This document shows, piece after piece, positions 25,336 through 59,483 of a DNA stretch of 64,000 nt. Position 1 is the first letter of the stretch. Every line of letters begins with the position of its first letter. The notes under the pieces are model-generated. The model did no database searches. It was given only the letters and a program-made list of their open reading frames with translations, and was not told where the DNA came from. The DNA lies in contig AP026133.1 of NCBI GenBank assembly GCA_030295235.1, forward strand, positions 992,001-1,056,000. Reading direction: 5' to 3'. Position numbers and translations under genes: made by a program. Origin of the DNA: Fistulifera solaris. Taxonomy: Eukaryota.

Positions 25336-27906
25336 AAATTGAAGTGAATCCTAGAACATAAAGCGCGACACAACAACTAGTGGACAAACTATAGCAAACA
25401 ACAATCCTCACGACCACAAAACCGCTTGAGCGCGCCAAATTGGACAGAGTTAGATGGAGGAGCTCCTCTGTCACCATTACCCATCGCGCGCATCCATCAG
25501 TTGTATTAGTTTATTAATTTTAGTTTATTTGCTTTTGAAATGAACAAAGTGTCAGCATGAAGGTGTTGTGGTCAATTTTTCATTGTGCTGGGACATATGG
25601 GGGACCCTTGCTAGTGCCCGTAACCGCTAACCTATTTCTAGGATAACTCATAAGCACCGCAAGAGCTCCGAAGGCATTAAGCAGATCTCAACAAGCGATC
25701 ACAAACGCCCATGTATCCGGTTGGGAGCGGAAAGGCGAATGTGGCTTTCATAAGCTGCTCAGCGGGTGAACCCCAAACCCCGCTCAACCGTTACCATTGC
25801 TTCACCAATCATCGGCGCACACAGTTCTTCGGCACGCCTAATGGATCCCACAATTCAGGTGAAGAACTTTTCCCAGCACAATGCTCCAACTGCGTGTTTT
25901 CCGGTAAGGCAGGAAGCCTCGCAAGCAGGCAAGCGAATCGTCGAGACGACACGAGGTTGCCGTTTCGCTAGAGACGACTCCTCCTTCCTCGGGACATACG
26001 CACCACAACCCTTCATGCGCTCCCACTATGTATCCAACCATAGGGTCCCAAGCTGTGATCGCAGGCCACAGCTTTGGCAACAACTGAATACGGGGAGGAC
26101 ATCAAACCTCTCTCAGTCGCCTTCGAGAGGAGATGTGAGAAGAAGAAGAAGAACGCGGCGAAAAAGAGAGAAACAAAATTCAGCGATGCTTCTCCTACCG
26201 TAAAATCAAAAATAAGTTTGATCTCTTAAACTGAATTTAAATTCACTTAGAGGGAGCTATCTAAGTATTTCTGTCTCGAGCAACGGTTTTTTTCCATGTA
26301 TCGGTTGGGATCCCACGATCCACGAATGAATATCACGGTATACGCCTCTGGATATTTTCCAATATTGATGAACGCAGCTGCGAGCCCGGCCCGCTAGTCT
26401 CACCAGCAACATCCGCGTTTGAAATTCAATTCGCACAAGGGGGGAAAGAATGGATGTCGAGTCCATTGAAGGCACTTTTGTGTGCCTCGACGATGATAAA
26501 TGGGTGAGATGATTTCTGGATGTTTTGTTAGTTGCGTTTTCTTTGCGACGCGTTCACGCACTGTTTCAGTCTTGTTATTTCAATCGCACGGTGCTTCGAT
26601 GTAATGCCAGTCTGCGTGTCTGCGTCTGCGTGTCGTCGATGAAAGCCACAGCGCATGCGTCCATTTTGCTTTATTATTATACCCTGTATTGACATTATTC
26701 CCATGAAAGAAAAGGATTTGATGAATATTCAGAACTATTGATGATTCGGGAAACAGAACATGCCCCAACATTTCCGAATCGAACGAGGAAAGCCGCTGTT
26801 TATCGAGATATTGGAGGACCTTCACGCAATATTCGGATCGAACAGGGCTCAAACAGCATAAATCATCCGATGGCATTCTCGTGCGCAAGTCGTAGCGATT
26901 GGAATACAAGTATGTTAATCCGATTGACACGGATGGAAAGGACATAACGATGATGTGGAAAACGACCGACTTTTGTCTGTATCTGGTCGTGAACTTAGTG
27001 GAATAATCGTCGAACAATTAGTACGATCGGTGAGACAGTTATCAATGGGAGATCGGGTCAGTGGGCCGATCATCTTTCTTGTGCAAATTGCTAGTATTGT
27101 CATCGCGAACTTGCACAACAGAGTGCTTCAATTAGCAGCAACCTGGCTTCAAGTATAGTGACAAAATCGCGGAATACATGGCCATCTCTCGTGCCGATCG
27201 TAATGTCAAACGCATTTCCGAAACTGTTTCGTTCGTTCAAGTGGCGTCGCGAGAGTGTCGATTCACGACCGCCTATCGTGATGTGAAGTAGCAAGGAAGT
27301 CTACAACAAGGTGAATTGATAGCGATATTTGGGGCCGGCGGAGTTGGTCTTTCTTGTGTCATGGTGGAAGCATCGATAGGGAGAAACAATTGTGGCAATT
27401 GATCGGTCAAACGACGCACTCGACTTGGCAAGGGAGCTGGGTGCTAGGATCGAAACCAATAGGCGTGGGCTCTGGATTTGTACGGCCCGTCTTCAGCATG
27501 TCTTTTTCGCAATACGAAGCTAGATGTTCTCGTCTTAAAAAGACCTGTCGCCGGCCTGCTACGTGATGACAGATAGCTTTTCTCCACATCTAGCATTGGG
27601 TCTGTCCCGCGAAACACTCGAAGAACCGAAAGCGGGTCATTGGTAACAACACTTAGCAAAGCTTTCGGCGAATCCGTGTCTGCTTCATCGGCCTCAGTAA
27701 ACCTATTGTTGCTCCATGTCATGAACCAACAGGAGAAAAAACTTTGTGAATTGCTGCTTGGTTCGACATGTCCTTCCAATCGGGCGAATATCTGCAGATG
27801 CCGAAGCGTCGCATTCATTGTCTCTTCGTGCGCCAAGGACAAAGCTTACTTTAATAGGACAATCGTGAGCTCGGCGGTTGAAAATGCAACATTGTTCCAG
27901 TCATCC
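25336..27906 (+). repeat. Block A, left copy (inverted copy at 55912-58489)
   Basis: Reverse-complement match read directly, e.g. gcaaacaacaatcctcacgaccacaaaaccgcttgagcgcgcc. Identical ORF translations in both copies (26955-27158 = 56666-56869; 27100-27294 = 56530-56724; 26915-27118 = 56706-56909). Confidence 0.95.
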
Positions 27907-28910
27907 ATTTCTTGGTGCCGCAGGAGGACACATCTTGAATTCAGAGCATTGCAAGAATATTTGAAATTGTTGGTGCAAGCGCGTAATAAAGCTGGGCTAC
28001 ATTGTTTTTCGAGAGCACGTTATCAGTCTGGTCAAATACTACGACAGGAATGGTAACAGTTCTTCTTACTCATACGATTTGATCGATTCGATGCCGACTC
28101 ATAACGGCATGGCGACGCGGACCCGATGCAACGGTTTAGATGCGCTGCTAGTGCTCGTCCGATGGTACGCGTCGCGCAAATTTTCATCATCCGATTGTCA
28201 CCATGTGGACCGAAACGAATGGGAGGACAATTTGGCCGATGTGGATCCACGTGTATTCCAAGATTTTGTCTGGGGCGATGCCCCTCAGTGAGAGAGAGCT
28301 CAAAATCATATTGTTGTGATCTGGAGTTAAGCCGGATGTGGATGTCTCGAACGACAGACGACTCACTCGTAGCCATGCGAGGCAGCTACGAAAGAATCAT
28401 GTCGCTTTCTAGAGGGAATATTTGAATCCTTGGATGAGTCATCAACTGAAGTATGTTATGATAACATCAAATCTAGTTTCGATGGTGACGATAATGATTA
28501 GTTTTCACCGGGTGATTTGGTTGGAACGAATCGCCCGTAAGCTGTTTACGCTTCAGGTTCTATTCCAATTGGATGCTACCTTGGTCGAGTGCGCGTCTAT
28601 CTGTTCGAGAGCGGCCTTGTAAGACGACGCGAGAGAAAAGCAGAAAAGCGAATTCCATTCAAACAGTAGAATCCCACGGAACCGTACTGATTTCCTTCTC
28701 CATCGACAGGAACAACTGCTATTCAGTTGTCCAGATCAATGGGACCGGAATGAGGGACATGACCCTAACATTGGGTGACAAAACGCACGCTCCGAGTTGA
28801 CATCGATTCGATGTCTGCGCTTTTCCCTCTGCTTTTCGCTGGTGGTAAGATGGTAGCACTCCCTCTCGCCGTTTTGTGCATTCGGAAAGAAATCAAAGCC
28901 TTTTTGGAAG
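27907..28910 (+). repeat. Block B, left copy (inverted copy at 58490-59483)
   Basis: Starts tttcttggtgccgcaggagg (reverse complement of 59464-59483) and ends ...gcctttttggaag (reverse complement of ~58490-58502). Confidence 0.93.
27908..28291 (+). pseudogene. 5'-truncated duplicate of the 3' end of the gene at 59096-60749
   Basis: Encodes ...LIDSMPTHNGMATRTRCNGLDALLVLVRWYASRKFSSSDCHHVDRNEWEDNLADVDPRVFQDFVWGDAPQ*. It has no start and has indels upstream. Confidence 0.85.
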
Positions 28911-28939
28911 TTTTTGATAAAATTGTTAAGATTATTCGC

Positions 28940-30113
28940 TTATCTGCCTGGGATATCAATATTCGCCGTTACAGGCAGAGTTGTAAGAAGAACAGCCATG
29001 TCTTCATCGTCAAAATCATCATCACTGAAGTCGTCGTCATCTTCGTCATCGTCGTCATCGTCACTGTAATCATCGTCGTCCTCTTCCGAGCCGCTCTCTC
29101 TGTCATCATCCTTCTGCACAGAAGCAAGGTACTTGGCTTCTTCTGGTGTCAAACGCCCAGCTGCCACCATCTTCGCGAGATCTAAAGTCAAAGCATTTTT
29201 TGGATCTGGAATCGTAGTCCCGGTAGTCGTCTCCACTGTCAGATCTTTAGCCACCTCCGTTGCCCCTTCTTGCACAGGCCAGAAATCATCCTTATGCTCA
29301 TCTAAAAAGTTAATCCAATCACCCCAATGCTCTTTGCGCACATAGTTTAAAGGCGCATCTCCGCGAGCGTCAATCATGTGAAGCATTCGTGCATCCGCTT
29401 TGATCACAACTTGAGCTACATCCAAGGCAGGTTCTGGTGCCCAACAGGTATCGTGCAGAGGCGTTCGACCGTAATCATCGCACACTTGCAAGGTCGCCCC
29501 ATGCTCAAGTAAGGATTCTAACATTTCTTTACGACTGCGACGACAAACTGTGTGCACGATCGACTCCTTGTAATCATTACACGCGTTTGGCGATATGCCG
29601 CTTTCTACAATCTGTTTGAAATTGTCAACATCGTTCTTTCGCACAAGCCCGATGAGATAGACATCGTAGCTTGCCTTTTGCAACGGCGACGGAGTTTTCG
29701 AGTACGAGGTTTTCAAAGCTTCGATTTTCTCAGCAGAATATCCACGACTTTTTTAACAATGCATCGAGATATTGTTGAGGAGGGAGGGTTTTATCGATCT
29801 GTATAATGACACCAATGTGAGAGAGATGATTGAAATCTAGTTGACATACGCATACATAATGACTCACTCCTTTCTCGACCTTGCGTTTCTCTGCTTTCTT
29901 GTTCTGGGACGTCTTAGGGTTTCCTTCTTCTTTGGAAGTGTCCTTCTTTTGTTTTGGCTTTCGCTGCAAAAACCAGTTTTTCTTAAAGACTCTACTTCCG
30001 ACATTTTCCGGTGGGGGCTTGTGAACTTCTTTGCCGCGGTTCGAAGCCAAGAACACTGCTTGAAGCGTAAAAGGAATTCTAGACTGACGTGAAACAGGTG
30101 TGTTGCCAGCCAT
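28940..30113 (-). CDS. Ankyrin-repeat protein with acidic tail (diatom family); intron 29799-29867; frameshift near 29750
   Basis: PQQYLDALLKSRGYS...PSPLQKASY, GISPNACNDYKESIVHTVCRR, DDYGRTPLHDTCW, GDAPLNYVRKEHW, then a poly-Asp tail. Confidence 0.85.
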
Positions 30114-30609
30114 TGTGTTTATCTTCTCTGTTTCGTTTGAAGATGCTTTGTAGAAAGGTTGTGATGTGATGCAAGATAAAAGGTTTTACTCTTGCACTGC
30201 GTACCTTTGTATTGTTGTTGTGTTGACCGTTGACGTTTGACGTTGACATGCGCCGTATTTTTCCTGTTTCTCCGATTTTGTACACGTGGTCACTGGTCAT
30301 AAAGTTCCACGTTTGATTTTCTGACGAGAAGATAGTCTTTAACTGTAGTCTTGCAAATGCCCTTCAAGTAGTCATCGCTGATTACTACAGTCGATAGTAC
30401 AACGAACTCAGAATACGGTACTCCCTTTCGGAGTTTTCTCTCTTATTCTCTTGTTACAGTATATATACTGGTGCGACAAGAGCACAATATGGCTTCTGTT
30501 GAAGTTGTTGCCACCGTTGTTGTGTCGCCGCTTCTTTCGCGTTTTAAATTTACAAAAGAAGTTATTTACAAACATCATTATACCGAGACCCAGCAGCCTG
30601 ACGAATCAA

Positions 30610-31583
30610 ATGAATAGCAACAATAATACGAAAGACGTGGCATCCATGTCGGCTGCTCGCAACCCCTCCAAAACAGCCCCAGCGGTTACACAGCGCGACG
30701 GATTCGATCTCATTCCGACGACACCCATCGTCTGGGATGTTAGCGTTGACCGGAATCCAAACACAGGAAAAATGTGGAGTGATATTACGTACTCCAAATC
30801 CACAAAAGATGCTGCAGCTCGTATTGCCTTTGACAGGGCTTCAAAGTTACACGCCTTTCGACCTACTACGATACGGGAAATTCAACACGCTCTTGAAGAT
30901 GCCACAGAAGATCCAGCAATCGCCGTGATTCTCATTACCAGCAATACCAACGATCAGGAATACACACCCGCCTTTTGTGCCGGAGGTGACCAGACGGTCC
31001 GTTCCGATGGTGGAGGATACCAGGACGGCACCGAAACTCTCCCCAAATTGCGCGTCCTCGATTTGCAAGTACAAATGCGTCGCTGTCCCAAGCCCATTAT
31101 GGCCGTTGTACGTGGGTATGCCGTGGGGGTGGACACATTCTGCACATGCTCTGTGATTTGACTATAGCATCTACCGAAACGGCCGTTTTTGGACAGACGG
31201 GTCCTCGTATGGGCAGCTTTGATGCTGGTTATGGCAGCGTGCATGCCGCTGATTTAATGGGCCAGAAGCGAGCACGGGAACTCTGGTTCTTATGTCGATA
31301 CTATAATGCGGAACAAGCACAAGAGATGGGTTTGATCAATGCACATTATCCCGACGCAGAATTAGACGGACGCACCGCGCAGTGGGTCCGAAGAATGGTT
31401 ATGAATTCACCAACAGCCTTGGCGTGTTGCAAGGCGGCTTTGAATGCTGGACAAGACGGAGCTGCTGGAATTGCACAGATGGGAGGAGAGCTCACGCGGT
31501 TGTTCTATTTGAGTAAAGAATCACAAGAGGGACGACAAGCTTTCTTAGAGAAACGTGCGCCACATTTTCGAAGTAAATTATAA
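30610..31583 (+). CDS. menB: 1,4-dihydroxy-2-naphthoyl-CoA synthase with C-terminal SKL (frameshift near 31127)
   Basis: AFCAGGDQTVR, LRVLDLQVQMRRCPKP, GYAVGGGHILHMLCDLT (after adding one G), FGQTGPRMGSFDAGYG, GQKRARELWFLC, ESQEGRQAFLEKR, ending in SKL*. Confidence 0.94.
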
Positions 31584-32170
31584 GATCTTGAGGGACTGAG
31601 TGGGTCGTCTCTAATAATGCAAGTATGCGCTAATTATTACCAGAGTCTTAGAGAAGGCGAATCATCAGTTTGTCGATTTCGAGATTTATACCTGTGTTAT
31701 GGCAAACAGGACACTAGTGGAAAGCGAAAAGAAGTTTATTTAGCTTCAACCGAATAAGGTTTAGGTAGGTTTTACAGACTACTACGTAGAGTATTGCTGC
31801 TGGACCTGGACTGAGTCGAGAAACCACCGTCTCCAACGTTCAAGTCACGGTGTTAAACCAAGTCCCGATCCTTGCCTCACCGGTACCGTTGATTCTATTT
31901 ATTTTCAAAGTGGGCTCGGCGTGCGCCTCCCGCCAAAGTACTCACTCGCGATCTCCGCGCTCGAAACTATCTCTTTTGCCCCTTTCATTCATGTCATTTC
32001 GTCTATCGTCTGCTTCCCTTCAAGAACTAAAGTAATTCAGAGTGTTCATCTCTCATTTTTTCGCAAGCATCACCGAGTAATCAGTCTGCCTTGCGTCGCA
32101 CATTTTGGAAGTGATCGAACAAGGACACGCCAACTTGCTAACGTGGAGACGAACGTGTGCATCATACATC

Positions 32171-35100
32171 ATGCCGACACTCGAGACGATTGAAGTACCC
32201 ATCGAGCCTTTAAAGCCCGAGCAAACGAAACAGGCCAAAAGGACGACCGTACAGCTAAGCATGTGACCCCTCCTACGGAACTAAAGGAGACAACGCAGCC
32301 GAAGAAATCGAAGCAGCTAGGATTGACTGCCTTCTTCGCAAAAGCTCCGAAAGCCAAGCCACCGGTTCATGAAACCCCAACGTTGGACCCAGCTCGACGC
32401 ACTTCTCTGGTCAACATTGTGGTTGGTCGTACTGCTAGCACGACGAATGATCCTACGAAAAAACTTGACTTTGACAAGAAAGATTCGGCCGCAGGGAGTG
32501 TTCCTTCAGCAGACACTGGTCCAGCGAAGAAGAAGCAGAAACGAGACCATTCAGTGGACGATGAGAAGCTCGCGGCCTCAATTGCACAGACAAATAGTAC
32601 TCCACTTGTTGTAGAGAAGAGCCAAACGGTAAATCCTGAGTCTCCGGAGGTTGTGGGACAGCCGATCGTCGACAAAAGCACACAAAACGAGTCGGTGTCA
32701 AACAGCCAAGCTCGCGCTTCGGACCCCGAAGGAACAGACTCTATAGTTGTCACTGAAAAACCCGAGCTTCAGCCAAAGATCAAGATCCCAGTGACAAAGC
32801 AAAACACCGCGGAAAACACGACACCAAGATTCTACAAAGTTGGTGAGCGCTTGGAAGTTCTGTGGACCGTTCAATCGCCCAGTGACGAAGAAAAGGTTGA
32901 AAAACGTTGGTGGGGTGCAACACTGTGCGAAGATAACGGCGAAACAATGATCGTCGAGTACGACCCGTTCCCCGAAGGCGGCTTTGACGAAGTGTCACGG
33001 GAAACCGTCACGTTGAAGAGTCAACACGCACTCTTATGCGATGGAGAAGTGATGTCCGTTCGTCGTGAAGGCGAAACTTGGAACAGCAGCGACGAGTCGG
33101 CACAGGACGATTCAAGCGAAGACGATAAGCGCCACACCATGTTGAAGAAGTACACGGATCGTGCGAAGGAGCTCTTTGCAGTCTTCAAAGAATCGCTTGG
33201 TTCCGAGCCGCTGCTCAATATCGTCCTTCCCGTAGAAGCTGTTTCTACGGATGGAGAGTCCAGCGGTTTTCCCGACTTTGCGATTAAAACCCTGACAGCG
33301 CTGATCGAAGGACGAACGGAACCATTGAGTGTCTTGGCCTGCATCGCGTCGGAACAACTCAATGCGACGTACGACAGAACGTTTTCACTCGAAGAAACGA
33401 GCTCGAAAATCAAAGTGATTGCTACGAGAAAGAACATATTGAAAGATCTGTCCATTGTTGCAAGCGAGAACTCGGTAGCACCAATTGATTCGTTTGAGGA
33501 TGAGTCTCCTTTTTGGCGTTGGGAGGTGACGGTTGTTGATCTGCTTCCAACAGACTCCTTGTCGCGCGTGAAAAAGGCGAGGTCTTCTCACAAGAAGATT
33601 TCATCGCACTGGAATGCCATTGTCAAGCTTGTAAAGGCACTTCAGAACCGCTCGTTGAACGACAAAGCGTGGATTAGAATCACACAAGACGAAGAAAAAT
33701 TTCTGAAGTTCGAACGCGAGGAAGAAAAGGCACGCCTTGTTGCGCAAGCGAAAATCAGCAAACAGCAAGGACAAGAAAAGTTAAAAAAGCAGGACCAAGT
33801 GAGCTCCGCAAAAAAAGCCCAAGAAGAAGAGACCGCGCGTCTCAAAGAAGAGAAACTTTTGCTCAAGAAGGAAGCGACAGCCGAGAAGCAACGCAAGAAG
33901 GAAGAAGCCGAGAAAGTCAAACTTCAGAAGCAACTTGAAAAGGAGAACAAAGAACGTGAGAAGCTTCGCAAGGAGGAACTCTTAGCGAAACAGCAACGTA
34001 ATCTCATGTCTATGTTTGTTCCCAAGAAGAAAGAAGAAGCCGCGTTAGATCAGAGCAATGCGCCAAAGGGGAAACCAATACCCGATGGAGGACGAGAAGC
34101 CGAGTTCGACGTAGAAGCATTTCGTGTTCGAATTGCATCTGATTCGTATACAAGTCCAACGAACCCTTTCAAACGACGATCGAAACTGGCTCGACTGAAC
34201 AAAAAAGCTGTAACTCGTCGAGTAACGATTACTGTCGATGTCACCGTATTCCCCGACAACCTTTTCGAAGCTGAAGCATATTCTGAAAGAAGGGATGTTG
34301 AGGTTCTCAATAAGTACAAATTTTTCTCGTTTCACGAAGATGTCAGGCCACCGTACTACGGCACATGGAGTAAGCCGAGCACGATTGTGACAGGGCGTTC
34401 GCCGTTCAAGCGAGATACCGCTTTCCTGGACTACGAATACGACAGCGAGGGAGAGTGGGAAGAAGGCGACGACGAAACCGGAGAAGATTGTGACGATGAC
34501 GCGTGTGACGAAGACGAGGAGAAAGATGAAGAACACGATGACGAAGACGGTTGGCTCGCTGATGACGACGAAATTCCGGAAGATTTAGACGAAGAGACGA
34601 AGGAACGCTTACGAAAACAGCTTGAGACCAAGAAGAGAGGAGTCACCGGTGAATTGATTGTTTGCATCATTGCACCTGTGGATGGAAAACCAATCACTTT
34701 TGATGGTGATGACGTGCCTTCTTTAGTCGTCGAGGGTTTTTCACCAGCAGAAGCTAAGGAGATCATGATTTCCCATGCAGCAGAAAATCCCGAACAAACA
34801 ATTGAGCTGTGCATCGACCCTTTCCCGACTTTCCTCATGGATGAGCCGGCAGCAGAAAGTCCCAATCACGACGGAAACCAAGTCAAAGAACCCAGCCTCG
34901 AAGACCAAAGAACGTTTGCTCAATTTGTGCACAACTCAACGATTGCTTCGAAGGAAAAACTAATTGAGGAGCTGCGATCTTTGCATCCCCAAGTGACATC
35001 TAGTCGAGCACAAGCTGTTCGAATGCTTTGCAACACTGCAGAGAAAATCAAAAGCACCTGGCGAGTGAAGCCTTCCTATTTGGAACAACTGGGTTTGGAA

Positions 35101-35586
35101 CATTTATCCGAAGCTAAGATAGCCCGTGAGAGTCAAGAAGAAGAGTTGATGAGAATTATCGCTCGATCTATCCATCATGAAACCTATCCTTCGAAAGACA
35201 AAGCGGTCGATGAGCTTCGCTTAAAAAGTGAAGTCCTGTTAGCCACGAGCCGGACTGAGTGCTTACGTATCCTAGACATAGTTGCAACCAAGAAGAAAAT
35301 GTCGGGTGGCGGTTTCTTCTGGACTGTCAAAGGTAATATCCAGTCCAAGCTGGATCTTACTGATTTACCACAAGGCGCACCGGTCAGGAAGCCTGGCAAC
35401 GACCGCAAGGGGACCACTCCGATCCACGCCGCAGGAGGCGACCACACAATGAGCTCCTCTGAAAAATTGACTGATAACCAAGAGCTAGCGGACTGCAGTA
35501 CGAAGAAACGCAAGGGAAGCTCTAGTGGCAATGATGGGTCCGCGAAACTGATGGAATCTTTCGTGAAACGATCTAAAGCATCTTAA
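32171..35586 (+). CDS. CHAF1A: Chromatin assembly factor 1 large subunit (p150/CAC1/FAS1); probable frameshift near 32238
   Basis: KER coiled coil, PIP-like motifs QLGLTAFF and QRNLMSMF, signature FHEDVRPPYYGTWSK...LDYEYDSEGEWEE, ED-rich tract, C-terminal winged-helix-like units. Confidence 0.9.
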
Positions 35587-35680
35587 ACAACCGGACTATT
35601 GCCATGAATAGACTTAAGAATGTGAGTTGGACACTCTATAATGCTGATCTAGCCATGCATCCTGCCATTCGATTAGCTCG

Positions 35681-36334
35681 TTATTTCATTCTATAGATAT
35701 GGGTGCCTTCCAGGCTGGTGTTCACAGGGGTCCATCCTGGAACTGAAAAAACATTCGAAACAACAAGTGACCCCGATGGCAATTCTTTTCTAATTTCTGC
35801 CCTAGCTCTTTCATGATAGGGCCCAGGCCGTACTAGAGTTTAAAAGAAGCAAGAAAATGAGAAAAATTGGTACATTGCACCATATGCAGAGAGATCAGAG
35901 CTGACTTACAACAGCCACAACATCCACTTCGCTGAGGTCCGCCGTCCAGAGATCTTGCCAATAAAACCGGGTGGATGCCCAATACTTAGGTCCGCGAACA
36001 AACCTTTGACCCTGGGAGAAAATGTAAAGAAACGGATTACTTTCGTAACCGATACTCAGTCGAAACGTTTGAGCAGCCGCAAAACTAACCGACCATCACC
36101 ACTACCAAGATCGACGAACACTTCTTTCTTTCTCCCGACGGTTTGTTGAAGTTGTCGAAACATGGCTTCTCTATGAGTTCGAAATGTTGGTAAGTAGGGA
36201 GCTCCCCGACCCCGCAAAACGGGTGGTAAACTTGCCAGCATGGCAATATTCAACACGAAGAACGCCCCCAAGCCGTAAAATACTGCTGGACTTATTCCTC
36301 CGCTCTCCGTTTTATCCCCGCCATTATCAGACAT
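35681..36334 (-). CDS. FAM173/ATPSCKMT-like SAM-dependent lysine methyltransferase; intron 35833-35909; frameshift near 36082
   Basis: N-terminal TM segment, GAPYLPT, VDLGSGDGRLV, IGYESNP, DLWTADLS, YGLGPIM...KLEKEL...VVSNVFSVPGW. Confidence 0.82.
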
Positions 36335-47567: not shown

Positions 47568-48530
47568 CTATATCATACTATCAAGCCAGTCTTCCAAGTT
47601 TTCTTCCTCTAAGATTTCGTTTTTCTTGTCTGTGGATTCCACTGGTGTAATGTTGGCTGTGTCGACGCTGTTCAGTGTTTCTTTGAGCCACTCGTCTATG
47701 TTGTCCTCTCCATTGGAAGTAGCAATAGCCACGCGAGGAAAATCATCCTGGTCTTGACTGGGTAGCGATCGTAATCTCAAAATGAGATCGTCATTATCTT
47801 CCGTGACTGTTATGTTAGCTGGCGACGTCGCAGGCGGCTCGATTTTATCAAATATCCCCTGTGACTTGTGCGAAGCCGATATAGCGGGTAATTTCGACAA
47901 TTGATCTACCGCAGCCTCGTTGACACTAGCTGCGACTCCGAAAAGAGAAACCCGTCGCGACGTCTTTGGGTCTACCTCTGGCGGAGGAATCACCGGCCTC
48001 GCGGGTAGGTTATGGATTCCCAGTCGACTGGCGACTGGATCTGCTAGTGCATTGGCAGCACGATACTTTACCGTCACGGAAGAGAGGGACGAAACAGTAG
48101 TAGAGTCGTCGCGGGCATCGTTGTCTGGCTCTTGACCCGAAATCGACGAAATCAGTCGAGAAGGGATTCGAAACCGATCTGCCAAGGAGAGATGTTTCAA
48201 CGCAAAGTTCATATCTTTCCTTAGCTGTTCTGGATCAGTCTTACTGAAAGCAAGAGTTGTTGCTTCTGAGTCTTCCTTCTTGGTAGGCATAACATAACGC
48301 TGAGACGCAACATTGGCTTCGAGTAAAGACACCTCATCCTCTAATCGCTCCTCGAAATCATAACTATTATCATGCTGTTCTTCACTTTGATTTTCGTCGC
48401 CTTTCCCAGCATTCCATTTCGGTCGACTGATCCGTCGTTTCGTTTCGTCGAATCGGCCCGCGCCGCGACCACTGCCTCGCCCTCGACCGCGTCCTTTTCG
48501 TTGATTGAACAATACTTGGGATCGGCCCAT
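47568..48530 (-). CDS. Aven/RIPR-like protein (RG-rich N-terminus, LEDWLDSMI C-terminus)
   Basis: GRGRGRGSGRG at the N-terminus, central ALKHLSLADRFRIP, terminal IDEWL and EENLEDWLDSMI*. Confidence 0.55.
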   Translation of the reverse strand: MGRSQVLFNQRKGRGRGRGSGRGAGRFDETKRRISRPKWNAGKGDENQSEEQHDNSYDFEERLEDEVSLLEANVASQRYVMPTKKEDSEATTLAFSKTDPEQLRKDMNFALKHLSLADRFRIPSRLISSISGQEPDNDARDDSTTVSSLSSVTVKYRAANALADPVASRLGIHNLPARPVIPPPEVDPKTSRRVSLFGVAASVNEAAVDQLSKLPAISASHKSQGIFDKIEPPATSPANITVTEDNDDLILRLRSLPSQDQDDFPRVAIATSNGEDNIDEWLKETLNSVDTANITPVESTDKKNEILEEENLEDWLDSMI

Positions 48531-48973
48531 AATTTCCGCTAATTGTCCAACGACACACACGACTGTTTCAGCTTACTCTTCCGTCGTCTTGTTGTTTTCC
48601 TGGTTGTACAAGCAATGCTTAAAACATCTAACATCCGCAATTACCAGTATAGCAAACCATTACAAATAATAATTGTTGCAGCCCTTGTGTGTCGTCGTCC
48701 ATCGACGAGAGATAAGGATAAAAACTCGTCCGCAATCAAACATTTCCGTTGAACAAGCGATGCACGCGAGCCCTCCATGATCCTTTTACGGAGTATCTAA
48801 TAGCAATAGTGGGATGGAGCAGCCTGCGTGTCACACCAAAGTGCAAGCTCGATCCGCCGGCGACCAAAATTAACAGTGAAGTTGAACTGTACAACAGCAA
48901 CCGCAAAGCATAAATTCATCGAGGTAAATGAGCATGATAAAGCACATTGCATTGTATTTGCATTACAAACTCC

Positions 48974-51900
48974 ATGGCGTCTTCCCCAATGAAGTCAAGT
49001 CAAAATACTCGAATTGATCTAACACCTCCACCATATGGTACTTCGCAGGATGTACGTAATGGATGGGCTTACTGTGTTCTTCAAATATTGGCGGCAACTT
49101 TTTGCTCTCACACAGTCGTCCGTTCCAAATCTTCTTCATAAATATAGGCCAATCTCACTCAGACGCAAACATCGGAAATCTTGACTCAAAATCCTGATTT
49201 GACGCAGCTCGGTGACGACGATGGTGCCGTACTCTCACCGCTTCCGCCGTTTAGTCCAGGCGTGCTTCGAACTCTGCCGTGGGGTCGCTTGATGCCGACC
49301 CAGACGTCGCGACCCGCGTTCGATCTTTTGCCGCGACAACCCAATCATTCCCAATCCATAGGAGGTATTTCGTTTTTAGGAATCGAACACTTGTATCCCT
49401 CGGATGTCTTTAATGAGTATACGATCGGAAGAAGTCCCAAATGCGATATTCGAGCCATCAAACCGGAGGATGGGTCCGTCGACGAAAACAATCGACAGCA
49501 GTGGGCGTATGGAGTTATATCAAATCGACACTGTCGGATTTTTTGTTGCTTAGACTCGAGCTTGACACAACCTGGGATCACTTTGCCTCGAATGCAAGTC
49601 TTCTTGGAAGATATGAGCGGAAATGGAACGATCGTCAATCAAACGACACTTTTGCGCCGAGGAGAGAAACGCATGCTACATACCGGGGACGAGATATGCT
49701 TGGTTAATCCGCACACACTCAAAAAGAAGATACGTTCCGCGACGGTGTTAAAGGAGCTTCTCAGTCAGCACTCGTTTGTCTTTGTTAATTTGCATCAGCA
49801 ACAACCAGGATTCACGGCTCAGGTGTTAAAGTCATGGCAAATGAATCCTCCGAGCACAGTGGCAAAGAAGCGCAAGCCGGCGGTGAATGTCCGAGAAATT
49901 CGACAGCACTCAAATTATGTTGGAAAGTCGCCAGCAGGAGACATTGTTGGTTGGAGAACCCTACATAATCGACAAATGGCCAACCAAAAGCCGGGCACTG
50001 GTCGAAGTGTGGAAGAAGAATACGACATCCGAGATCTTTTGGGAAGCGGAACGGTAGGAGAGGTCAGAAGAGCAATTCATCGCAAAAGCGGCGAGGAACG
50101 AGCCGTCAAAATTATATCCATTGGAGGACGTAATCGAGGTTTAATGCAGGTTCAACCGACGACAGCCTTGCAAGCAGAGGCGACCATTCTGCAAAAGCTC
50201 AAGCACCCCTACGTCGTACGATTGTTTGACGTGTATCCTCCAACTGCTTCGTCCAACAATATTTACTTGGTCATGGAACTTCTTCACGGTGGTGACCTGT
50301 TTGATCGGATTGTGGAAAGGGAAGGTTTACCGAGACGGAAAGTCGCCGCGTGATGAGACGACTTTTGAATGCTATCCACTATCTTCACGAAGAATGCAAT
50401 ATCGTACATCGTGACCTCAAGCCTGAAAATATCCTGTGTGTTCATCGCGGACTCGATCGTTGCATAGAAGTCAAAATTACAGATTTCGGACTCGCGAAGG
50501 CAGTGAATGGTTGCCAAGAGTCGCTCAAGACGTTCTGTGGCACTCCACAATACTTTGCCCCCGAAGTTTTGAAACGCCGAAGCACAGTAGCGGGACGCGG
50601 AAGGTATGGCAAACCGGCAGACATGTGGTCTCTAGGAGTTATTTTGTATGTTCTTCTTTCTGGGACGCAGCCTTTTGGTGTGGAACTCGACGATGTCATC
50701 AGCGTCGACAACCAAGGCGATGGAGACTCCAAGCAGGTTCAGTTTTCGAATGAGCATTGGGGAGGCATATCGGATTCGGCTCGCGATCTGATCCGCAAAT
50801 TGCTTGTTGTTGATACAAATATGCGCTTTAATGTTCAGCAAGCATGCGACCACGAATGGATGTTAGTCGGCGACGGCGATACGCATGTTCACCCCCTAAG
50901 CGACCCTGCGGTGGTGGAGTTTCGAAAGACTATGTCATCAACAACGCAAAAAGTCGGTAACGAGGTGGATCTCATGAGCAAGCTATCAGTGGAAGATTCT
51001 GGCTCGAACAGCAGAATGCCGTCGTCTCCCTATATTTACTCAAATCAAACTCACCCAAGCTCGCCTAAAATTGATAATCAATCTACTGCTTCCGATGCTG
51101 TTGACGGATCGTGCCTACGAGGAAGCGGAACTTATTCCCTTGTGGCGGTCATGAATTGCAGAGAAATCGAAAGCAATTCACCACAGACTAACGAAAGCCC
51201 TTTGATGGCGACTGATCCAGTCGACGGTTCAGGTAGTGCGGATACATCGTGTTCGGTTGAAAAACGTATTGATGAAATGTCCGCCGACGCTTATGCATTT
51301 AATGTTAACAACACGTCTCCTTCAAGTCCACTTAAGAACCAAGTTGTCAACATTGAAGAAATTTCGATAAGTGAAAATCGAAGTGATGTCATTTACAAAA
51401 CCCCGCCGGCACCCGCGAATCGAGAAACGAACGTGGAAAAAGCGGTTTCAAGCCCCGCGATTTTATCCCTACCTAACCCCAGCGCTGTTTGCAAAGACCC
51501 GGTGCCAAATGAGAACTTAAATTCACTCAAGACACCCAGAAATCTACTTGCTTTCTGTACGCCAAGTGACAGGTCACGTGAGTTTCTTACAAAGAATGCC
51601 AAGGCTAAGGAAGAGCACCAACTTTCTTTGTCCCGTCGCCCTCTCTCTCCTGTTCGAGGGCCGAACCAACCAGGGAATAGTTTACAAAATGAAAGCAATC
51701 CAACCACGCTCTTCAAAGCATTACCAACCCCGCCTACTTCGAATCGCAACCCTGCTAGAGTTTCTGATTTTCCAAACGATCGCGAGACTATGCCACTATA
51801 CGAAGAGGATGATGTCATGTCCTTTCCTAGTGATAAGGCTGAAAGTATAGCGTCTTTCTCATCTGCGAATTCAAAGTCTGTTCCCCACGAGATACGTGAA

Positions 51901-52089
51901 TCATCTGAAAAGGCATCGATGAAGCGCAAGGCGGATGCTGTCGGTACCGCAATCCAAGACACTGGGGACACAAGAAGCGATAAAGTAGCAGTACACAAGC
52001 GAAACAAGAAACTACAGTCTGAAGTTCGACCCACTTCCATGAAAAGGCAGACCACTCTTTCATCCTGGTTTATGAAAAGTACGAACTAG
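48974..52089 (+). CDS. CHEK2: Chk2/Cds1-like FHA-domain checkpoint kinase; intron 49052-49147; frameshift near 50316
   Basis: SQ/TQ cluster, FHA domain (IGRSPKCD, ISNRHCRI, DMSGNGT, LHTGDEI), kinase domain (LGSGTVGEV, HRDLKPEN, DFGLAK, TFCGTPQYFAPE, DMWSLG). Confidence 0.82.
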
Positions 52090-52185
52090 CCAGAATAGAA
52101 GTCTTGAAAAATAATCTTGATCTAGTTATAAAGAAAGTTGCATAGCAAAGAGATGTCTAACTTTTGTCACTACTCATAAGCAATG

Positions 52186-53160
52186 TCATGTGCACTGCAT
52201 TCGATTCGTTACTTGAGTATCTGTCTCTCCCTTGTCGATGTATGGCGATAGTAAGCCGGTGAAACTCCCCCGGTTCTCGTCGTATTCACTTCCTGATTCC
52301 AAAAACATATTCACCAGCGTGTCGGATCCCGTCTCTTGTTGGATAGCGTATAAGATCACCGAAGTGGCCAATACTTGGGCTGCGCATCAACTAGTTGGTT
52401 CTTATCCTCACGATGAATGCCATTTGAACCGAAAAATTTGTAATGGTTCTGCGACAGTATTTCCCGAAGCATCAACAAAGTACCGATAAAAGGTCTTTTA
52501 TCAAGGACTGTCTCCACGCTAGTTTTAGACTTGTTATTGATCGCCTCATTCATGGTCTTTGAAATATCATGGCAGAATTTGCGCAATGATTCACCGATCA
52601 TCGACATGTGGGTCTTGTGCAAACTTGATTTCTCCGCGTCGTTCATTGTTGCATCCATGACCGGGGATGGCTAAGGTCCATCGTGTAAAGCGTGAGCTAT
52701 AATCGATCCAGCGAGTAATACTTGCCGTTCCGGTGACTGACGCATATACCTCGATTCGAATGAGGCCCTGTCCATCTCGTCGAGCGAATATGCAACATTT
52801 CTGACTGCATTCTTGCTGAATTCCTTTTGTGGTTGTAAGAGCGACGAGCTTGGTGGTCTGGGTAACACGCCCGACTTTTATTGTTCGACATTTTTACTTC
52901 GTTGTGAACGAAACGCCTTCGGTTTCATTGTGGGTATCGTCGCTGCGAACCTTACTCGCCCTGTTTGTCGACGCGATGAGTCCTTTTTAATCCACAAGTC
53001 TCCAAAGCACTCTTCATCCTACTACATTTGCTCTATTGCCATCCGATCAGGATATCGGCAATTCAGAGTGAAGTGTTTGGTCAGCAATATTGTTTTGCGA
53101 AGCAGGCGATGGTGGATCGAAACGGGTGCGACTGTGATGTAACGAGGTGTTGTTCTGGTT
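52186..53160 (-). pseudogene. Probable degraded gene of unknown family
   Basis: ORFs 52671-52868 and 52356-52658 and the upstream sequence share one frame interrupted by single stop codons. Confidence 0.35.
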
Positions 53161-53715
53161 TTCGAACACAAGCTGGAGTCTTAACGTGACCCAAACCGCT
53201 TTAGAATTTAGAAACGGCGTTAAAATTCTGCCTCCTCGTGAGCGCTACGTAGAATCTTGTACTGAAAGCAGAGTTTTAATGTCCATTTTCCACTTGGGAG
53301 ACACGGGAACGCACCTCTGCTTGGTACATTTCTCTACGGGGGCCTACGTGAGTGTACACTTTTTCCCGCACCTTCACCTCGAACCTTCTCTACAAAATTG
53401 ATGAGTTCTGTTGGTCTTTCTACAAATGCAATAGCCTACATCTATTTTTTTGCAATGCGTTCCATACGCCATAGTGTCGAAAAGCGCGGCGGATTTTTGT
53501 ATTGTTAGGACCACACATGCGTGATTTCGCCTCCTTCAGTCACGCAGCGCAAATACTGGTATTTGCCGTAAGATTGGGTCGACCTACACCAGTAACGATT
53601 CATGTAATAGACTACCCTTTCCCTAAAGCCTTTCCCTAAAGGGCGCAATCGCAATAAAGTCGATGTAATCAGAACATTTCACAAAGTTAAATACTGTAGA
53701 AATACCACGTCGTTT

Positions 53716-55232
53716 CTAATAATCAGCCTCGACGGAATCGGCATTGATGTTCATGTCCAAATCTTCGCCAGTAACACGTTTGTAAAGATCGAGCATGTCC
53801 TCCACATCCTTCTCAAAATGCGACGTGGCATCCAACGACTTGGCAATGTAGCAATTGTCCTTAGATCCGTCCTCAACCGGTTCGTAGACCGTCGACACGC
53901 TGATAAAGTAGTTCTGGATGGACCCGAGAAGCTGCAATCCAGGGGCGACATCCTCTTCTGGTTTGTCTTTCTCCGCGGTACAGCTCACAATGGCAATGGT
54001 AATACCCGGTGCACACACGTTGAGACCGTGACCGACCGCACACACAAAGACATCCGACTTACGGCCCACTTGCGGTCCAGGGATAACGATCTGTACCGAC
54101 TCCAACGGTTCACCTTGTCCAAGTGACATGCCAGCAAAGTTGGTCGTGTTCGTTCCCGGGATAGGGTGGTCTAGGATGCAGATGCAACGAATGACTTTGC
54201 TGGATGCGCGAATCTTGGAAGCATCGAAGTAAGAAGGATCTCCAATGATCATGGGCGCCTTGGCCATTTGGTTCCCAGCCTTCACTCCCGTCGCCTTGCC
54301 ATCTTCAAAGATGATCTCATCGATGTCCTGATTCAACATAAAAGTACCGCCGTGAACTGCACAGATTCGAGAGAAGCTTTCCGGAAGACCACCAAGACCA
54401 TAGAGAGGGTAGATGTAGGGTGAAGTTCCGTACCGCGTCATCGAATACATGTACGTTTGCAATGCCTTCACCGTGGGCAGAGCGGGCTCATCCATGTGCT
54501 TCTCGTCGAGCTGAAGGCACATGGCGTGAGAAATGAACTGTTGCGTATCTGCATTCAAACCAAAGGCAGCATAAAGCTCTTTCATGGTCATCTTGGTGAG
54601 ATCACGACCCTCATGCGTTGACGGGTCTTCGGCTTTGTACGAATCCGCAAAGATGAGAAACTTTCGAAATTTGGGCTTTTCCCACATTCCCATAATGGGA
54701 GTGTTAAGTGCTTCCTGTGGCGTCGCCGGGATTTTGTGGATTTTCCCATTGCGGTACACGAACGACCCCGCAATGCTTTTGAACTCGAGATAGCGCGTAA
54801 CTTTTGTGTGCAAGAGCATCTTGGTAAGACTTCCCGTTGCCATGATGAACTTGGGAATCAAGTCAATGTTGTATTCGCGGTTCGCCCCGAGGCTTTCGGG
54901 AGGTGTTCCTCCTTGAAACTTCTCGAACAAGGTCGTCAAGTTCAACGATGCTCCGTCTCCGCCATAGTAGCCGTTGCGGTCGACCTGGAGGACACGTTTG
55001 CCCTTCACCGACAACAAACCCGAAATCACGCATTCTTTCAAACCTGTTCCGAGAACAATAGCGTCATACTCGCCATCGGCAAGAGCTTCCATTCCTTCCG
55101 GAAGCCAGTCAAAGGTGGGCTGACGAGACACAATAGATCCGTTAGATCGAATGCAATGCAGGCATTTCTGATTTTTCCTGTCGATTTGTCGTTCCCTTTC
55201 GGTTCTCTTACCTTGGATTCTTCTTCCGACAT
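53716..55232 (-). CDS. GDI1: Rab GDP dissociation inhibitor; intron 55120-55211
   Basis: EYDAIVLGTGLKECVISGLLS, DRNGYYGG, YNIDLIPKF, SPYIYPLYGLGGLPESFSRICAVHGGTFMLN, DATSHFE. Short first exon MSEEESK. Confidence 0.96.
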
Positions 55233-55911
55233 GGTTATGGATAAATGCTAGTAAAACGAATTTAAAGGTTAGATTGTTATTGCTTTGTTGCCACCGAAAC
55301 AACAGAATGATAACGAATAAACTTTCGATGCGAGCAAGATCTTCACGCGGTCTTTCACGTGTTGATTTTTACGTCGTCAATCCATCGTACATTTAGAGCT
55401 ATACTAATAAATACCCTCAACGGACTCTTGACGGAACCAAGGACAGAAGTGTGCATTCTTTATACCAGGTACGTTCTATTCCGTATTTGCTTAACCCTTT
55501 TCTTTGATAACGAAAACATGCGTAAGCGAACAGTAATTGCTCTAATGCTCAGCTAAATAGATGGTCCAAGTGTTTGAAAGCAACTATTATTCATGTAACA
55601 AAGATAGACAACATAATTGTCCGGGACTGGAACTGAAGGTCAAACTGCGATGGGTCTAACTTGTACGCTATATTAAAATTTGATGCTCTTTATTGTATTT
55701 CGTCTGCAATTACTTAATAAGAGGCGTCTAGCATTTCTAAAGGAATGGGTGCCGTGTCGGTATGACTAGAGTGTGTCGTCTTACACATGATGCTTCAACA
55801 GCGTGAATGATGAAATCGCTGTAAAAGTATGCAAGTATGCTGCCATAGAGTAAAACCTGTCCAACGACGACGGCCAGCTTCATGCAAAGTGCTCGGTGGC
55901 GAGAAGCGAAC

Positions 55912-58489
55912 GGATGACTAGAACAATGTTGCATTTTCAACCGCCGAGCGCACGCCAAGGCGAGATTGTTCCATTGACGTACGCTTCGTCCTTGGCGCAC
56001 GAAGAGACAATGAATGCGACGCTTCATCATCTGCAGATATTCGCCCGATTGGAAAGACATGTCGAACCAAGCAGCAATTCACAAAGTTTTTCTCTTGATC
56101 GTTCATGAAATTGGCAACAATATGTTTACTGAGGCCGATAAAGCAGACACAGATTCGCCGAAAGATTTGCTAAGTGTTGTTACCAATGACCCGCTTTCGG
56201 TTCTTCGAGTGCTTCGCGAGACAGACCCAATGCTAGATGTGGAGAAAAGCTATCTGTCATCACGTAGCAGGCCGGCGACAGGTCTTTTTAAGACGAGAAC
56301 ATCTAGCCGTATCGTTAAGAAGACATGCTGAAGACGGGCCGTACAAATCCAGAGCCCACGCCTATTGGTTTCGATCCTAGCACCCAGCTCCCTTGCCAAG
56401 TCGAGTGCGTCGTTTGACCGATCAATTGCCACAACTGTTTCTCCCTATCGATGCTTCCACCATGACACAAGAAAGACCAACTCCGCCGGCCCCAAATATC
56501 GCTATCAATTCACCTTGTTGTAGACTTCCTTGCTACTTCACATCACGATAGGCGGTCGTGAATCGACACTCTCGCGACGCCACTTGAACGAACGAAACAG
56601 TTTCGGAAATGCGTTTGACATTACGATCGGCACGAGAGATGGCCATGTATTCCGCGATTTTGTCACTATACTTGAAGCCAGGTTGCTGCTAATTGAAGCA
56701 CTCTGTTGTGCAAGTTCGCGATGACAATACTAGCAATTTGCACAAGAAAGATGATCGGCCCACTGACCCGATCTCCCATTGATAACTGTCTCACCGATCG
56801 TACTAATTGTTCGACGATTATTCCACTAAGTTCACGACCAGATACAGACAAAAGTCGGTCGTTTTCCACATCATCGTTATGTCCTTTCCATCCGTGTCAA
56901 TCGGATTAACATACTTGTAATTCAATCGCTACGACTTGCGCACGAGAATCCCATCGGATGATTTATGCGGTTTGAGCCCTGTTCGATCCGTATATTGCGT
57001 GAAGGTCCTCCAATTTCTCGATAAACAGCGGCTTTCCTCGTTCGATTCGGAAATGTTGGAGCATGTTCTGTTTCCCGAATCATCAATGGTTCTGAATATT
57101 CATCAAATCCTTTTCTTTCATGAGAATAATGTCAATACATGGTATAATAATAAAGCAAAATGGACGCATGCGCTGTGGCTTTCATCGACGACACGCAGAC
57201 GCAGACACGCAGACACGCAGACTGGCACTACATCGAAGCACCGTGCGATTGAAATAACAAGACTGAAACAGTGCGTGAACGCGTCGCAAAGAAAAACGCA
57301 ACAAACGAGACATCCAGAAATCATCTCTTACCCATTTATCATCGACGAGGCACACAAAGTGCCTCAAATGGACTCGGGATTCGAGATCCATTCTTTCCCC
57401 CTTGTGCACATCGAATTTCAAACGTTTATCGCATTAGGGAGAGACGAGCAGGCCGGGCTCGCAGCTGCGTTCATCATTGTTGAAAGATATCCAGTGGCGT
57501 ATACCGTGATATTCACTCGTGGATCGTGGGATCCCAACCGATACATGGAAAAAACCGTTGCTCGAGACAGGAATACTTAGATAGCTCCCTCTAAGTGATT
57601 TTAAATTCAGTTTATGAGAACAAACTTACTTTTGATTTTACGGTAGGAGAAGCATCGCTGAATTTGTTTCTCTCTTTTTTCGCTGCGTTCTTCTTCTTCT
57701 CACATCTCCTCTCAAAGGCGACTGAGAGAGGTTTGATGTCCTCCCCGTATTCAGTTGTTGCCAAAGCTCTGGCCTGCGATCATAGCTTGGGACCCTATGG
57801 TTGGATACTTAGTGGGAGCGCATGAAGGGTTGTGGTGCGTATGTCCCGAGGAAGGAGGAGTCGTCTCGCAAAATGGGAACTTCGCATCGTCTCGACGATT
57901 CGCTTGCCTGCTTGCGAGGCTTCCTGCCTTACCGGAAAACACGCAGTTGGAGCATTGTGCCGGGAAAAGTTCTTCACCTGAGTTGTGGGATCCATGAGGC
58001 GTGCCGAAGAACTGCGTGCGCCGATGATTGGTGAAGCAATGGTAACGGTTGAGCGGGGTTTGGGGTTCACCCGCTGAGCAGCTTATGAAAGCCACATTCG
58101 CCTTTCCGCTCCCAACCGGATATATGGGCGTTTGTGATCGCTTGTTGACATCTGCTTAACGTCTTCGGAGCTCTTGCGGTGCTTATGAGTTATCCTAGAA
58201 ATAGGTTAGCGGTTACGGGCACTAGCAAGGGTCCCCCATATGTCCCAGCACAATGAAAAATTGACCACAACACCTTCATGCTGACACTTTGTTCATTTCA
58301 AAAGCAAATAAACTAAAATTAATAAACTAATACAACTGATGGATGCGCGCGATGGGTAATGGTGACAGAGGAGCTCCTCCATCTAACTCTGTCCAATTTG
58401 GCGCGCTCAAGCGGTTTTGTGGTCGTGAGGATTGTTGTTTGCTCTAGTTTCTTTGCCGCTTGTTATGTCGCGCTTGTGCGCTTCAATTT
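55912..58489 (-). repeat. Block A, right copy
   Basis: Reverse complement of 25336-27906. Confidence 0.95.
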
Positions 58490-59483
58490 CTTCCAAAGTA
58501 GCCTTCAATTTCTTCCACGAAGTACGAAACAAACGAGAGGAGGTCATGCCGTCCTACCACCAGCAAAAAGCAGAGAAAAAGAGCAGACATCGAATCATAC
58601 GTCAACTCGGAGCGTGCGTTTTGTCACCCAATGTTAAGGTCATGTCCCTCATTTCGGTCCCATCTGGACAACTGAATTGCGCTTGTTCCTGTCGATGGAG
58701 AAGGACATCAGTACGGTTCCTTGGAATTCTACTGTTCGAATGGAACTCGTCTTTTCTGCTTCTTCTCTCGCGTCGTCTTACAATGCTGCTCTCAAACAGA
58801 TAGACGCGCACTTGACCAGGGTAGCATCCAATTGGAATAGAACCTGAAGCGTAAGCAGCTTACGGGCGATTCGTTCCTACAAAATCACCCGGTGAAAACT
58901 AATAACCATCGACACCAGATGTTATGACAACATACTTCAGTCGATGACACATCCAAGGATGTAACATATTCCCTCTAGAAAATGAAATGATTCTTTCGTA
59001 ACTGCCTCGTATGGCTACGAGTGAGTCGGCTGTCGTTCGAGACATCCACATCCGGCTTAACTCCAGATCACAACAATATGATTCTGAGCTCCCTCTCACT
59101 GAGGGGCATCGCCCCAGACAAAACCTTGGAATACACGTGGATCCACATCGGCCAAATTGTCCTCCCATTCGTTTCGGTCTACATGGTGACAATCGGACGA
59201 TGAAAATTCTGCGCGACGCGTACCATCGGACGAGCACTAGCAGCGCATCTAAACCGTTGCATCGGGTCCGCGTCGCCTTGCCGTTATGAGTCGGCATCGA
59301 ATCGATCAAATCATATGAGTAAGAAGAACTGTTACCATTCTTGTCGTAGTATTTGACCAGACTGATAACGTGCTCTCGAAAAAACAATGTGGCCCCAGCT
59401 TTATTACGCGCCTGCGCCAACAACTTCAAAAATTCTTGCAAATGCTCTGAATTCAAGATATTTCCTCCTGCCGCACCAAGAAA
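58490..59483 (-). repeat. Block B, right copy (includes the 3' end of the adjacent gene)
   Basis: Reverse complement of 27907-28910. Confidence 0.93.

Follow-up and report, generated by a model that had tools for sequence, protein, structure and literature searches.

We describe a 64,000-nt stretch of the genome of Fistulifera solaris, an allodiploid diatom (GenBank assembly GCA_030295235.1, contig AP026133.1, positions 992,001 to 1,056,000 of the forward strand; hereafter the window), in which a segment of about 3.57 kb is present twice, in opposite orientations and with its two halves swapped. Comparing the window with itself by blastn gives two inverted self-matches that define blocks A and B. 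Block A aligns 25361-27909 with 58475-55909 (94.5% identity, 2581 columns), and block B aligns 27908-28910 with 59483-58490 (90.1% identity, 1015 columns). The blocks follow each other as A-B in the left locus, but as B-A in the right one when it is read on the minus strand, so that the two loci are circular permutations of each other. Block ends and junctions were read by eye from the sequence. Homology at the left start extends to 25336 (AAATTGAAG) and is followed by an 11-nt indel, because of which the blastn alignment begins only at 25361. The left unit is then 25336-28910 (3575 bp, plus strand), with A at 25336-27907 and B at 27908-28910, and the right unit is 55912-59483 (3572 bp, minus strand), with B at 58490-59483 and A at 55912-58489. 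A repeat search of the window reports 13 inverted pairs, every one within blocks A and B, and apart from these the window matches itself only in a tandem array of 34-nt units at 63.6 kb. The permuted inverted duplication is confirmed.

Genes and joints of the two copies

The right copy contains the end of FisN_2Lh490 (59096-60749, minus strand), a gene of the USP8-dimerisation-domain family whose relatives carry the domain PF08969. The deposited protein, GAX10960.1, has 550 amino acids, and the homeolog FisN_2Hh490 is 91% identical to it. The names of proteins that match exactly or nearly so agree with Fistulifera solaris as the species. The window matches 549 of the 550 residues once a 1-nt insertion near 59210 is allowed, and right B is continuous with the frame of the gene: colinearity holds over 513 residues and resumes, one nucleotide out of step, for the last 36. 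The extra base stands after codon 513 (59208-59212, CGCAGAATTT in the window, CGCAAATTT needed by GAX10960.1) and puts the last 37 codons into another frame. It is absent from the left pseudogene copy and may be an assembly indel or a real lesion. Within right B, bases 59483-59096 are the last 388 coding bases of FisN_2Lh490 (stop 59098-59096) and bases 59095-58490 are 606 nt of its 3' flank. Right A fills the interval from this flank to the upstream region of the downstream neighbour, a Rab GDP-dissociation inhibitor (GDI; PF00996, E = 5.5e-181) at 53716-55092 on the minus strand, with its Met at 55092. As a separate observation on FisN_2Lh490, residues ~330-550 (59760-59096, minus strand) match no Pfam family. 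In an alignment of 23 relatives, this C-terminal half has the invariant motifs STNGC (C353), PSDVHD (H409) and FF.EH (H460), and D483; by this conservation pattern it looks like an undescribed Cys/His enzyme-like domain.

In the left copy, bases 27908-28291 of B come from the same 388 coding bases (stop TGA 28289-28291) and the remainder from the 3' flank. Left B starts mid-codon and has three 1-nt deletions (at ~27949, 27995 and 28004) within its first 100 nt, and we therefore classify it as a pseudogene fragment of FisN_2Lh490. A search for shorter proteins finds no Fistulifera protein encoded by a left-type copy, a result that is uninformative for the homeolog. Left A is non-coding. The left unit sits between two convergent genes identified by Pfam: a PPWD1-like gene with WD40 and cyclophilin domains (23318-25275, plus strand, stop 25273-25275), and an ankyrin-repeat gene whose last exon is at 28940-29752 on the minus strand (stop 28940-28942). 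If the insert is removed, the two stops are 89 nt apart. Another convergent pair in the window, the open reading frame (ORF) of ribosomal protein L13 and the ORF at 47571-48572, has 54 nt between stops; such tight spacing is normal in this genome.

Each joint of the left copy is resolved to the base. The end of this copy, TTTGGAAG (..28910), and its start, AAATTGAAG (25336..), are direct neighbours in the right locus at 58490|58489. The outer ends abut there with no gap and no overlap, so that the left copy is exactly one unit, with zero bases lost or gained. Its sole new internal joint is the A|B joint at 27905-27910 (CC-ATT-T, plus strand), which fuses both outer ends of the right segment: CATCC-GTT-CGC at the A end (55912|55911-55909) and CAA-GTT-TCTTGG at the B start (59484-59482) give CATCC-ATT-TCTTGG, a 2-3-nt GTT/TT microhomology of the form CATCC-[G/A]TT-TCTTGG. 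The two outer joints of the left insert have no microhomology, and the unit ends have no terminal inverted repeat (TIR), long terminal repeat (LTR) or target-site duplication.

The right boundary between B and A carries a signature of its own. Two exact copies of the 15-mer TGGAAGAAATTGAAG lie 22 nt apart on the minus strand within 58481-58517, one at 58517-58503 and the other at 58495-58481. These are the only two matches with 0 mismatches in the 64 kb, and the second spans 58490|58489. Its nine A-side bases are also the opening nine of the left copy, which begins with AAATTGAAG, ends with TGGAAG and retains a diverged version of the first 15-mer (GGAAAGAAATCAAAG). An exact repeat running across 58490|58489 indicates that the DNA at this boundary is old and was contiguous from the start, with no ligation there; the probability that the match across the boundary arose by chance is ~4^-9.

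Much of this layout had been proposed in an earlier reading of the window made from the sequence alone (the sequence-only reading). The inverted A-B/B-A permutation that it described is recovered by self-blastn, the lengths of 3575 and 3572 bp and all its coordinates hold, and in the self-comparison that it suggested A and B are the only long repeats of the window. It had also seen that the first and last bases of the left copy are adjacent in the right locus, which we place at 58490|58489, and that the left A|B join shows a GTT-like microhomology, which the comparison of the joint with the source ends bears out. Its labels for the PPWD1 and ankyrin genes agree with Pfam, and the ~90 bp that it expected between these genes without the insert are the 89 nt between the stops. 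It had noticed no transposase, TIRs or target-site duplication, and Pfam, a terminal-repeat search and the reading of the junctions find none either.

Reads, repeat content and identity between the copies

We compared Logan (de Bruijn) contigs of several sequencing runs with positions 23300-30300; the kinds of run were guessed. We take run X1 as genomic DNA, because its depth is even over genes and spacers and its contigs total 51.6 Mb; runs X2 and X3 have uneven coverage. In X1, 74% of the 31-mers sampled from 24800-29400 are present. The sequence of the left copy occurs in the reads as contigs with 0 differences (X1 records 3 and 5, X2 records 9 and 10), and X1 record 5 bridges 28910|28911, from B into the ankyrin gene, with 0 differences and 139 + 267 letters on its two sides. 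Four X1 contigs run from B back to A. In X1 record 4, B at 28803 is followed by 142 letters, then by A at 26930-27908 and then by another 443 letters, with 90 differences and 21 gaps in 652 letters (~14% diverged). This contig has the right-type order, lacks the initial 1.6 kb of A with the repeat described below, and is most simply read as the homeolog. A homeolog-like contig ends its alignment at 25279. None of the 15 joints listed skips from 25335 to 28911, as an empty site would, which carries no weight either way. Within the PPWD1-like coding sequence, the only X1 contig at 25110-25111 (depth 33) reads GT where the window has AG.

Depth in X1, averaged by hand, is 40 over nine bins of the left flank and 41 over six bins of the right flank. 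The non-repeat part of A together with B averages 71, or ~1.75 times the flanks, which corresponds to 3-4 copies if the flanks count as two (L and H). The repeat part of A behaves in another way. Over 25406-26575 (right copy ~58430-57257), X1 reaches 10-20 times the flank depth, with values of 384, 829, 514, 431 and 179 in five bins. The same piece is the most abundant part in X2 and X3, and X5, a run labelled as another organism, piles up on it too; the X5 contigs match only this piece (up to ~98% identity) and a low-complexity stretch. From the pile-up in these four runs we conclude that ~1.1 kb of A is a dispersed repeat family, which we name E. Several contigs show internal deletions relative to the E copy of the window, and a second small multi-copy piece of A lies near 27190-27377. 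The longest ORF of E has no homologue, and one exact 23-mer of E is absent from viral and prokaryote contig collections. Compared with 80 metagenome loci encoding relatives of FisN_2Lh490, the unit shows similarity only in the coding part of B. None of the 8 ORFs tested within the copies, 3 of them wholly inside left A, matches a Pfam family. Rfam has 0 matches at gathering score in the window, and within the unit gives only two chance-level hits (E = 0.3 and 0.74).

The two copies differ in 272 of 3614 aligned columns (7.5%), and the differences are unevenly spread. One tract of 484 bp (26905-27388, right 56436-56919) and another of 281 bp (25393-25673, right 58163-58443) are 100% identical. 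An identical run of 484 bp is not reached in any of 2000 shuffles (0/2000, maximum 169). In the 100 nt beside each end of the homology blocks, 23%, 17%, 11% and 26% of positions differ, compared with ~3% inside. A contig of X1 covers 26905-27504 with 0 differences at depth 33.9, twice the single-copy value of 17, which agrees with two truly identical copies. Judging from this pattern, the simplest reading is that gene conversion has acted between the inverted copies and was unable to reach the block edges. The diverged edges would then record the true, older age of the insertion, and in such a gene-conversion mosaic the identity between the copies is a poor clock.

Direction and mechanism of the duplication

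Gene order elsewhere bears on which locus is the source. In the set of 80 metagenome loci, 6 distant diatom-like contigs have GDI 0.6-3.3 kb from the FisN_2Lh490 relative. Twenty loci extend 2.5 kb or more upstream of this gene, and in 4 of them (L001, L006, L007 and L036) GDI stands on that side in divergent orientation; 37 loci extend by 2.5 kb or more downstream, and 2 of these (L043 and L045) have GDI there in tandem, the arrangement seen in the window. A USP8-dimerisation-family gene and Rab GDI that are adjacent in two orientations form a conserved pair that has been flipped at least once. No homologue of PPWD1, ankyrin, VDE or ECH (enoyl-CoA-hydratase) is found nearby in any of the 80 loci. 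An H scaffold of 348,457 bp has, by accession, peroxiredoxin GAX12995 (2Hh484), L13 GAX12997 and FisN_2Hh490 GAX13003, in the same order and direction as the window. The sequence-only reading had predicted that, if a circle was involved, the orientation of the block between the copies would be unchanged on the homeolog, and the H order agrees with this if accession numbers follow position, as is usual practice. Three of 10 window proteins were matched by exact look-up; GDI and six others were not, probably through differing start codons or exon models.

A third related genome (JGI/IMG; P0122, P0142 and P0147) has an orthologue of the gene, 95% identical, on a contig of 145,297 bp, and the orthologues of L13 and peroxiredoxin, which in the window are 11-14 kb from the gene, on a separate contig of 125,903 bp. 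This may be either an assembly break in the repeat region or a different arrangement.

The boundary 15-mer, the adjacency of the gene to GDI, the H order and the contigs running from B to A together identify the right locus as the source and the left insert as derived. The right locus is the older, colinear arrangement, and the left unit is its copy.

We consider it probable that the copy travelled as a closed ring of unit length. A 3.57-kb piece of the right locus (59483-55912) would have been copied as a ring whose ends joined at the 2-3-nt GTT microhomology. The ring may have closed by direct joining or have popped out of a tandem duplication that did not last, two routes that would leave an identical trace. 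It would have been broken at a different point, 58490|58489. Its insertion site would have been a break 27 kb away, where the convergent PPWD1-like and ankyrin genes leave a spacer of 89 nt, and ligation there, in inverted orientation, would have left no target-site duplication. The outcome would be exactly one unit, rotated to A-B instead of B-A. The lack of a target-site duplication and of microhomology at the outer joints is as expected for end joining into a break. The inserted gene fragment would then have decayed through frameshifts, and the inverted copies would later have exchanged sequence by gene conversion, giving identical tracts inside and diverged edges.

Several points weigh against this account. 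We read directly from the data that the copy is permuted, that its ends abut exactly in the source, that its joint has microhomology, which locus gave rise to which, and that the identity is mosaic; from these we infer the ring itself, its insertion by end joining and the empty target site. The sequence-only reading had proposed reads over the left joints as a test for an assembly artefact; 28910|28911 is bridged, and among the contigs listed none crosses 25335|25336 or 27907|27908. X1 may itself be the data behind the assembly of the window. Depth indicates 3-4 copies of the non-repeat part of A plus B, and up to four contigs run from B to A, more than the simple expectation of two L copies and one H copy. 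The closest relatives with gene context, L001 and L006 (63% and 58% identity in the C-terminal domain), have a divergent GDI, so that only the adjacency of gene and GDI is conserved, not their tandem arrangement, and the H gene order depends on the numbering of accessions. Finally, near each of the three left-copy joints, to a distance of ~100 nt, divergence is raised (11-26%), and error-prone replicative copying would give the same pattern.

This last point belongs to the strongest of the alternatives, replicative repair with template switches (fork stalling and template switching or microhomology-mediated break-induced replication, FoSTeS/MMBIR, or synthesis-dependent strand annealing, SDSA), which we regard as unlikely. 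A broken or stalled end at the PPWD1/ankyrin spacer would have copied inverted A, jumped at GTT to B and returned, with no free circle or with a circle only as template. Microhomology is present at the internal joint, and, as such events typically show, the source is inverted and lies close by on the chromosome that received the copy. The differences cluster within ~100 nt of all three left-copy joints, and clustered differences near joints are a signature of error-prone break-induced synthesis, but they are equally explained by gene conversion that stops short of the block ends. Two features fit less well. Copying must stop exactly beside the start of the first piece, at 58490|58489, for which a linear template gives no reason and a ring does, and the two outer joints are without microhomology. 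The sequence-only reading had not considered this route, which stands beside the ring, and it had missed both repeat E and the mosaic.

Repeat E raises a further possibility, very improbable in our estimation, that the unit is a mobile element with a circular stage (a Crypton-like tyrosine-recombinase element, a Helitron or a non-autonomous relative), with E supplying the recognised end. E, which makes up ~1.1 kb of A, has tens of copies, some with internal deletions, the point at which the ring would have opened is ~70 nt from the rise in depth, and Cryptons are reported from diatoms (PMC3212892). Against this, the unit has no TIR, LTR or target-site duplication and no core common to the outer joints, the unit ORFs have no Pfam family, and the longest E ORF has no homologue. 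Site-specific excision and reinsertion would not rotate the unit, and B is plainly a fragment of a host gene. The sequence-only reading had named, as something that would refute it, A and B being independent high-copy elements found in many combinations. B and the rest of A are at only ~1.75 times flank depth, so this does not describe the unit as a whole. We also rejected more specific forms. For a Helitron, the unit ends are not 5'-TC and CTRR-3'. As a tyrosine-recombinase core common to the outer joints, the candidate AAATTG lies 8 nt inside the ankyrin-side flank, off the joint. A 3' or 5' transduction by E would preserve the B-E-A order.

A 27-kb inversion with staggered breaks, after the model of Ranz et al. 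2007, is slightly less probable again. Its ancestor would read PPWD1-A-[GDI...ankyrin]-B'-gene, and fill-in of two long overhangs would duplicate A and B, inverted, at both ends. By our own derivation it predicts exactly the observed layout P-A-B-M-A'-B'-Q, the same as a ring does, so that the layout alone cannot decide between them. Inverted breakpoint duplications are frequent in Drosophila, at 17 of 29 inversions in PMC1885836. Several things speak against an inversion here. The model needs 58490|58489 to be a new ligation, and the exact 15-mer spans that boundary. It needs the gene to have been 27 kb from GDI beforehand, and the two are neighbours in the 6 distant diatom contigs. The order peroxiredoxin, L13, gene on the H homeolog is the same as in the window, the diverged contig carries B then A, and A (2.57 kb) is larger than the ~1.9-kb maximum reported in PMC1885836. 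With the right locus older and colinear and the left fragment frameshifted, the inversion is disfavoured. The preference of the sequence-only reading for a circle over an inversion thus gains from the 15-mer, the GDI adjacency, the H order and the frameshifts of the left fragment, with the ring itself still reached by interpretation.

Back-splicing offers an RNA route, in which a read-through transcript would have become a circular RNA that was reverse-transcribed and inserted; we hold this for highly improbable. There is a GT after the A end (55911-55910) and an AG before the B start (59485-59484), with the donor downstream of the acceptor on the gene strand as back-splicing requires. The predicted product, CATCC|TTTCTTGG, is however one base shorter than the observed joint, the acceptor would be inside an exon that the annotated protein reads straight through, and there is no poly-A at either end of the unit. 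Transcription of the 2.6-kb A interval is only assumed by this route, and the unit has no known intron by whose loss it could be judged; no indel of more than 14 nt separates the two copies. A chimeric retrocopy of two poly-A-site cleavage products was rejected, also for want of poly-A.

Just as improbable is an assembly artefact in which the left copy does not exist as placed: the window does differ from the deposited protein by the 1-nt insertion and from all X1 contigs at 25110-25111, which points to small errors or another data set, but the left copy has a sequence of its own, 7.5% off the right one, that occurs in the reads without differences, bridged from B into the ankyrin gene, and most of the 31-mers sampled from 24800-29400 (the 74% above) are in X1.

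Related systems and neighbouring features

Re-insertion by way of a ring has a known precedent in the serial translocation of cattle KIT via circular intermediates (Durkin et al. 2012, Nature 482:81; in PMC3784456). As summarised there, a duplicated segment is found at a new site with its halves swapped, as here, and is read as circularised and then reopened elsewhere. The KIT segment is given there as 492 kb, compared with 3.6 kb here. In Fistulifera solaris, by contrast, the copy is on the same chromosome, 27 kb away and inverted, in a diatom; it carries intergenic DNA and a piece of a gene but no gene in full, and no phenotype is known for it; and the copies have since been altered by gene conversion, if our reading of the mosaic holds. 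The staggered-break inversions of PMC1885836 end in the layout P-a-b'-M'-a'-b-Q, which likewise has inverted duplicates flanking a block of genes. The present case differs in that the joint 58490|58489 is old, the neighbouring genes contradict the required ancestor, and A is larger than any duplicate in that study.

The formation and reintegration of extrachromosomal circular DNA (eccDNA) have been reviewed (PMC9527254, PMC8414719), and a ring model has been put forward for permuted gene clusters (bioRxiv 10.1101/374199). In these sources, circles of a few kb, closure at microhomology and reintegration lead to circular permutation, as we propose here. What they cover is somatic or cancer events, or a hypothesis of horizontal transfer of clusters; here the copy is fixed in an assembled nuclear genome, and both source and copy are preserved at base-pair resolution. 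Cryptons and Helitrons (PMC3212892 for diatom Cryptons) also have a circular DNA stage and are without TIRs, like the unit described here. It differs from them in that it has neither a recombinase gene nor a Rep gene, that its ends are not defined termini, that its joints have no core in common, and that it is a rotated host segment. In the titles and abstracts of the diatom eccDNA literature that we found, no such event is described.

A chromosomal segment that was once a free ring leaves hardly any lasting trace except a permuted duplicate. Cases in which the source, the copy and all the joints can be read base by base are few, and the present one would add a stramenopile example. A direct repeat across the supposed ligation point is a way to tell a ring from a staggered inversion that uses sequence only, and the gene-conversion mosaic is a caution against taking the identity between such copies as a clock. 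In Fistulifera solaris, a 3.6-kb inverted pair 27 kb apart is also likely to break assemblies and to give rise to inversion polymorphism; a strain of this species is used for oil production and is now being genome-edited (PMC13276009).

A bolder version of our account would join a fixed, base-pair-resolved re-insertion of a ring to two copies that still interact and exchange sequence, that can flip the 27-kb block between them, and of which the left one lies in the path of read-through from the ankyrin gene. We regard it, as a whole, as unlikely. If it is true, homologous recombination between the copies could flip a block of 27 kb and ~15 genes, and both orientations of it may coexist in cultures. 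Transcription running on past the ankyrin gene would in that case give antisense RNA to the 3' end of FisN_2Lh490.

Apart from blocks A and B, the window holds the tandem array mentioned at the outset. It lies near the window end, at 63582-63879, and consists of about seven 34-nt units (..CCCAGATTTTATGGACACGTCAAAAT..).

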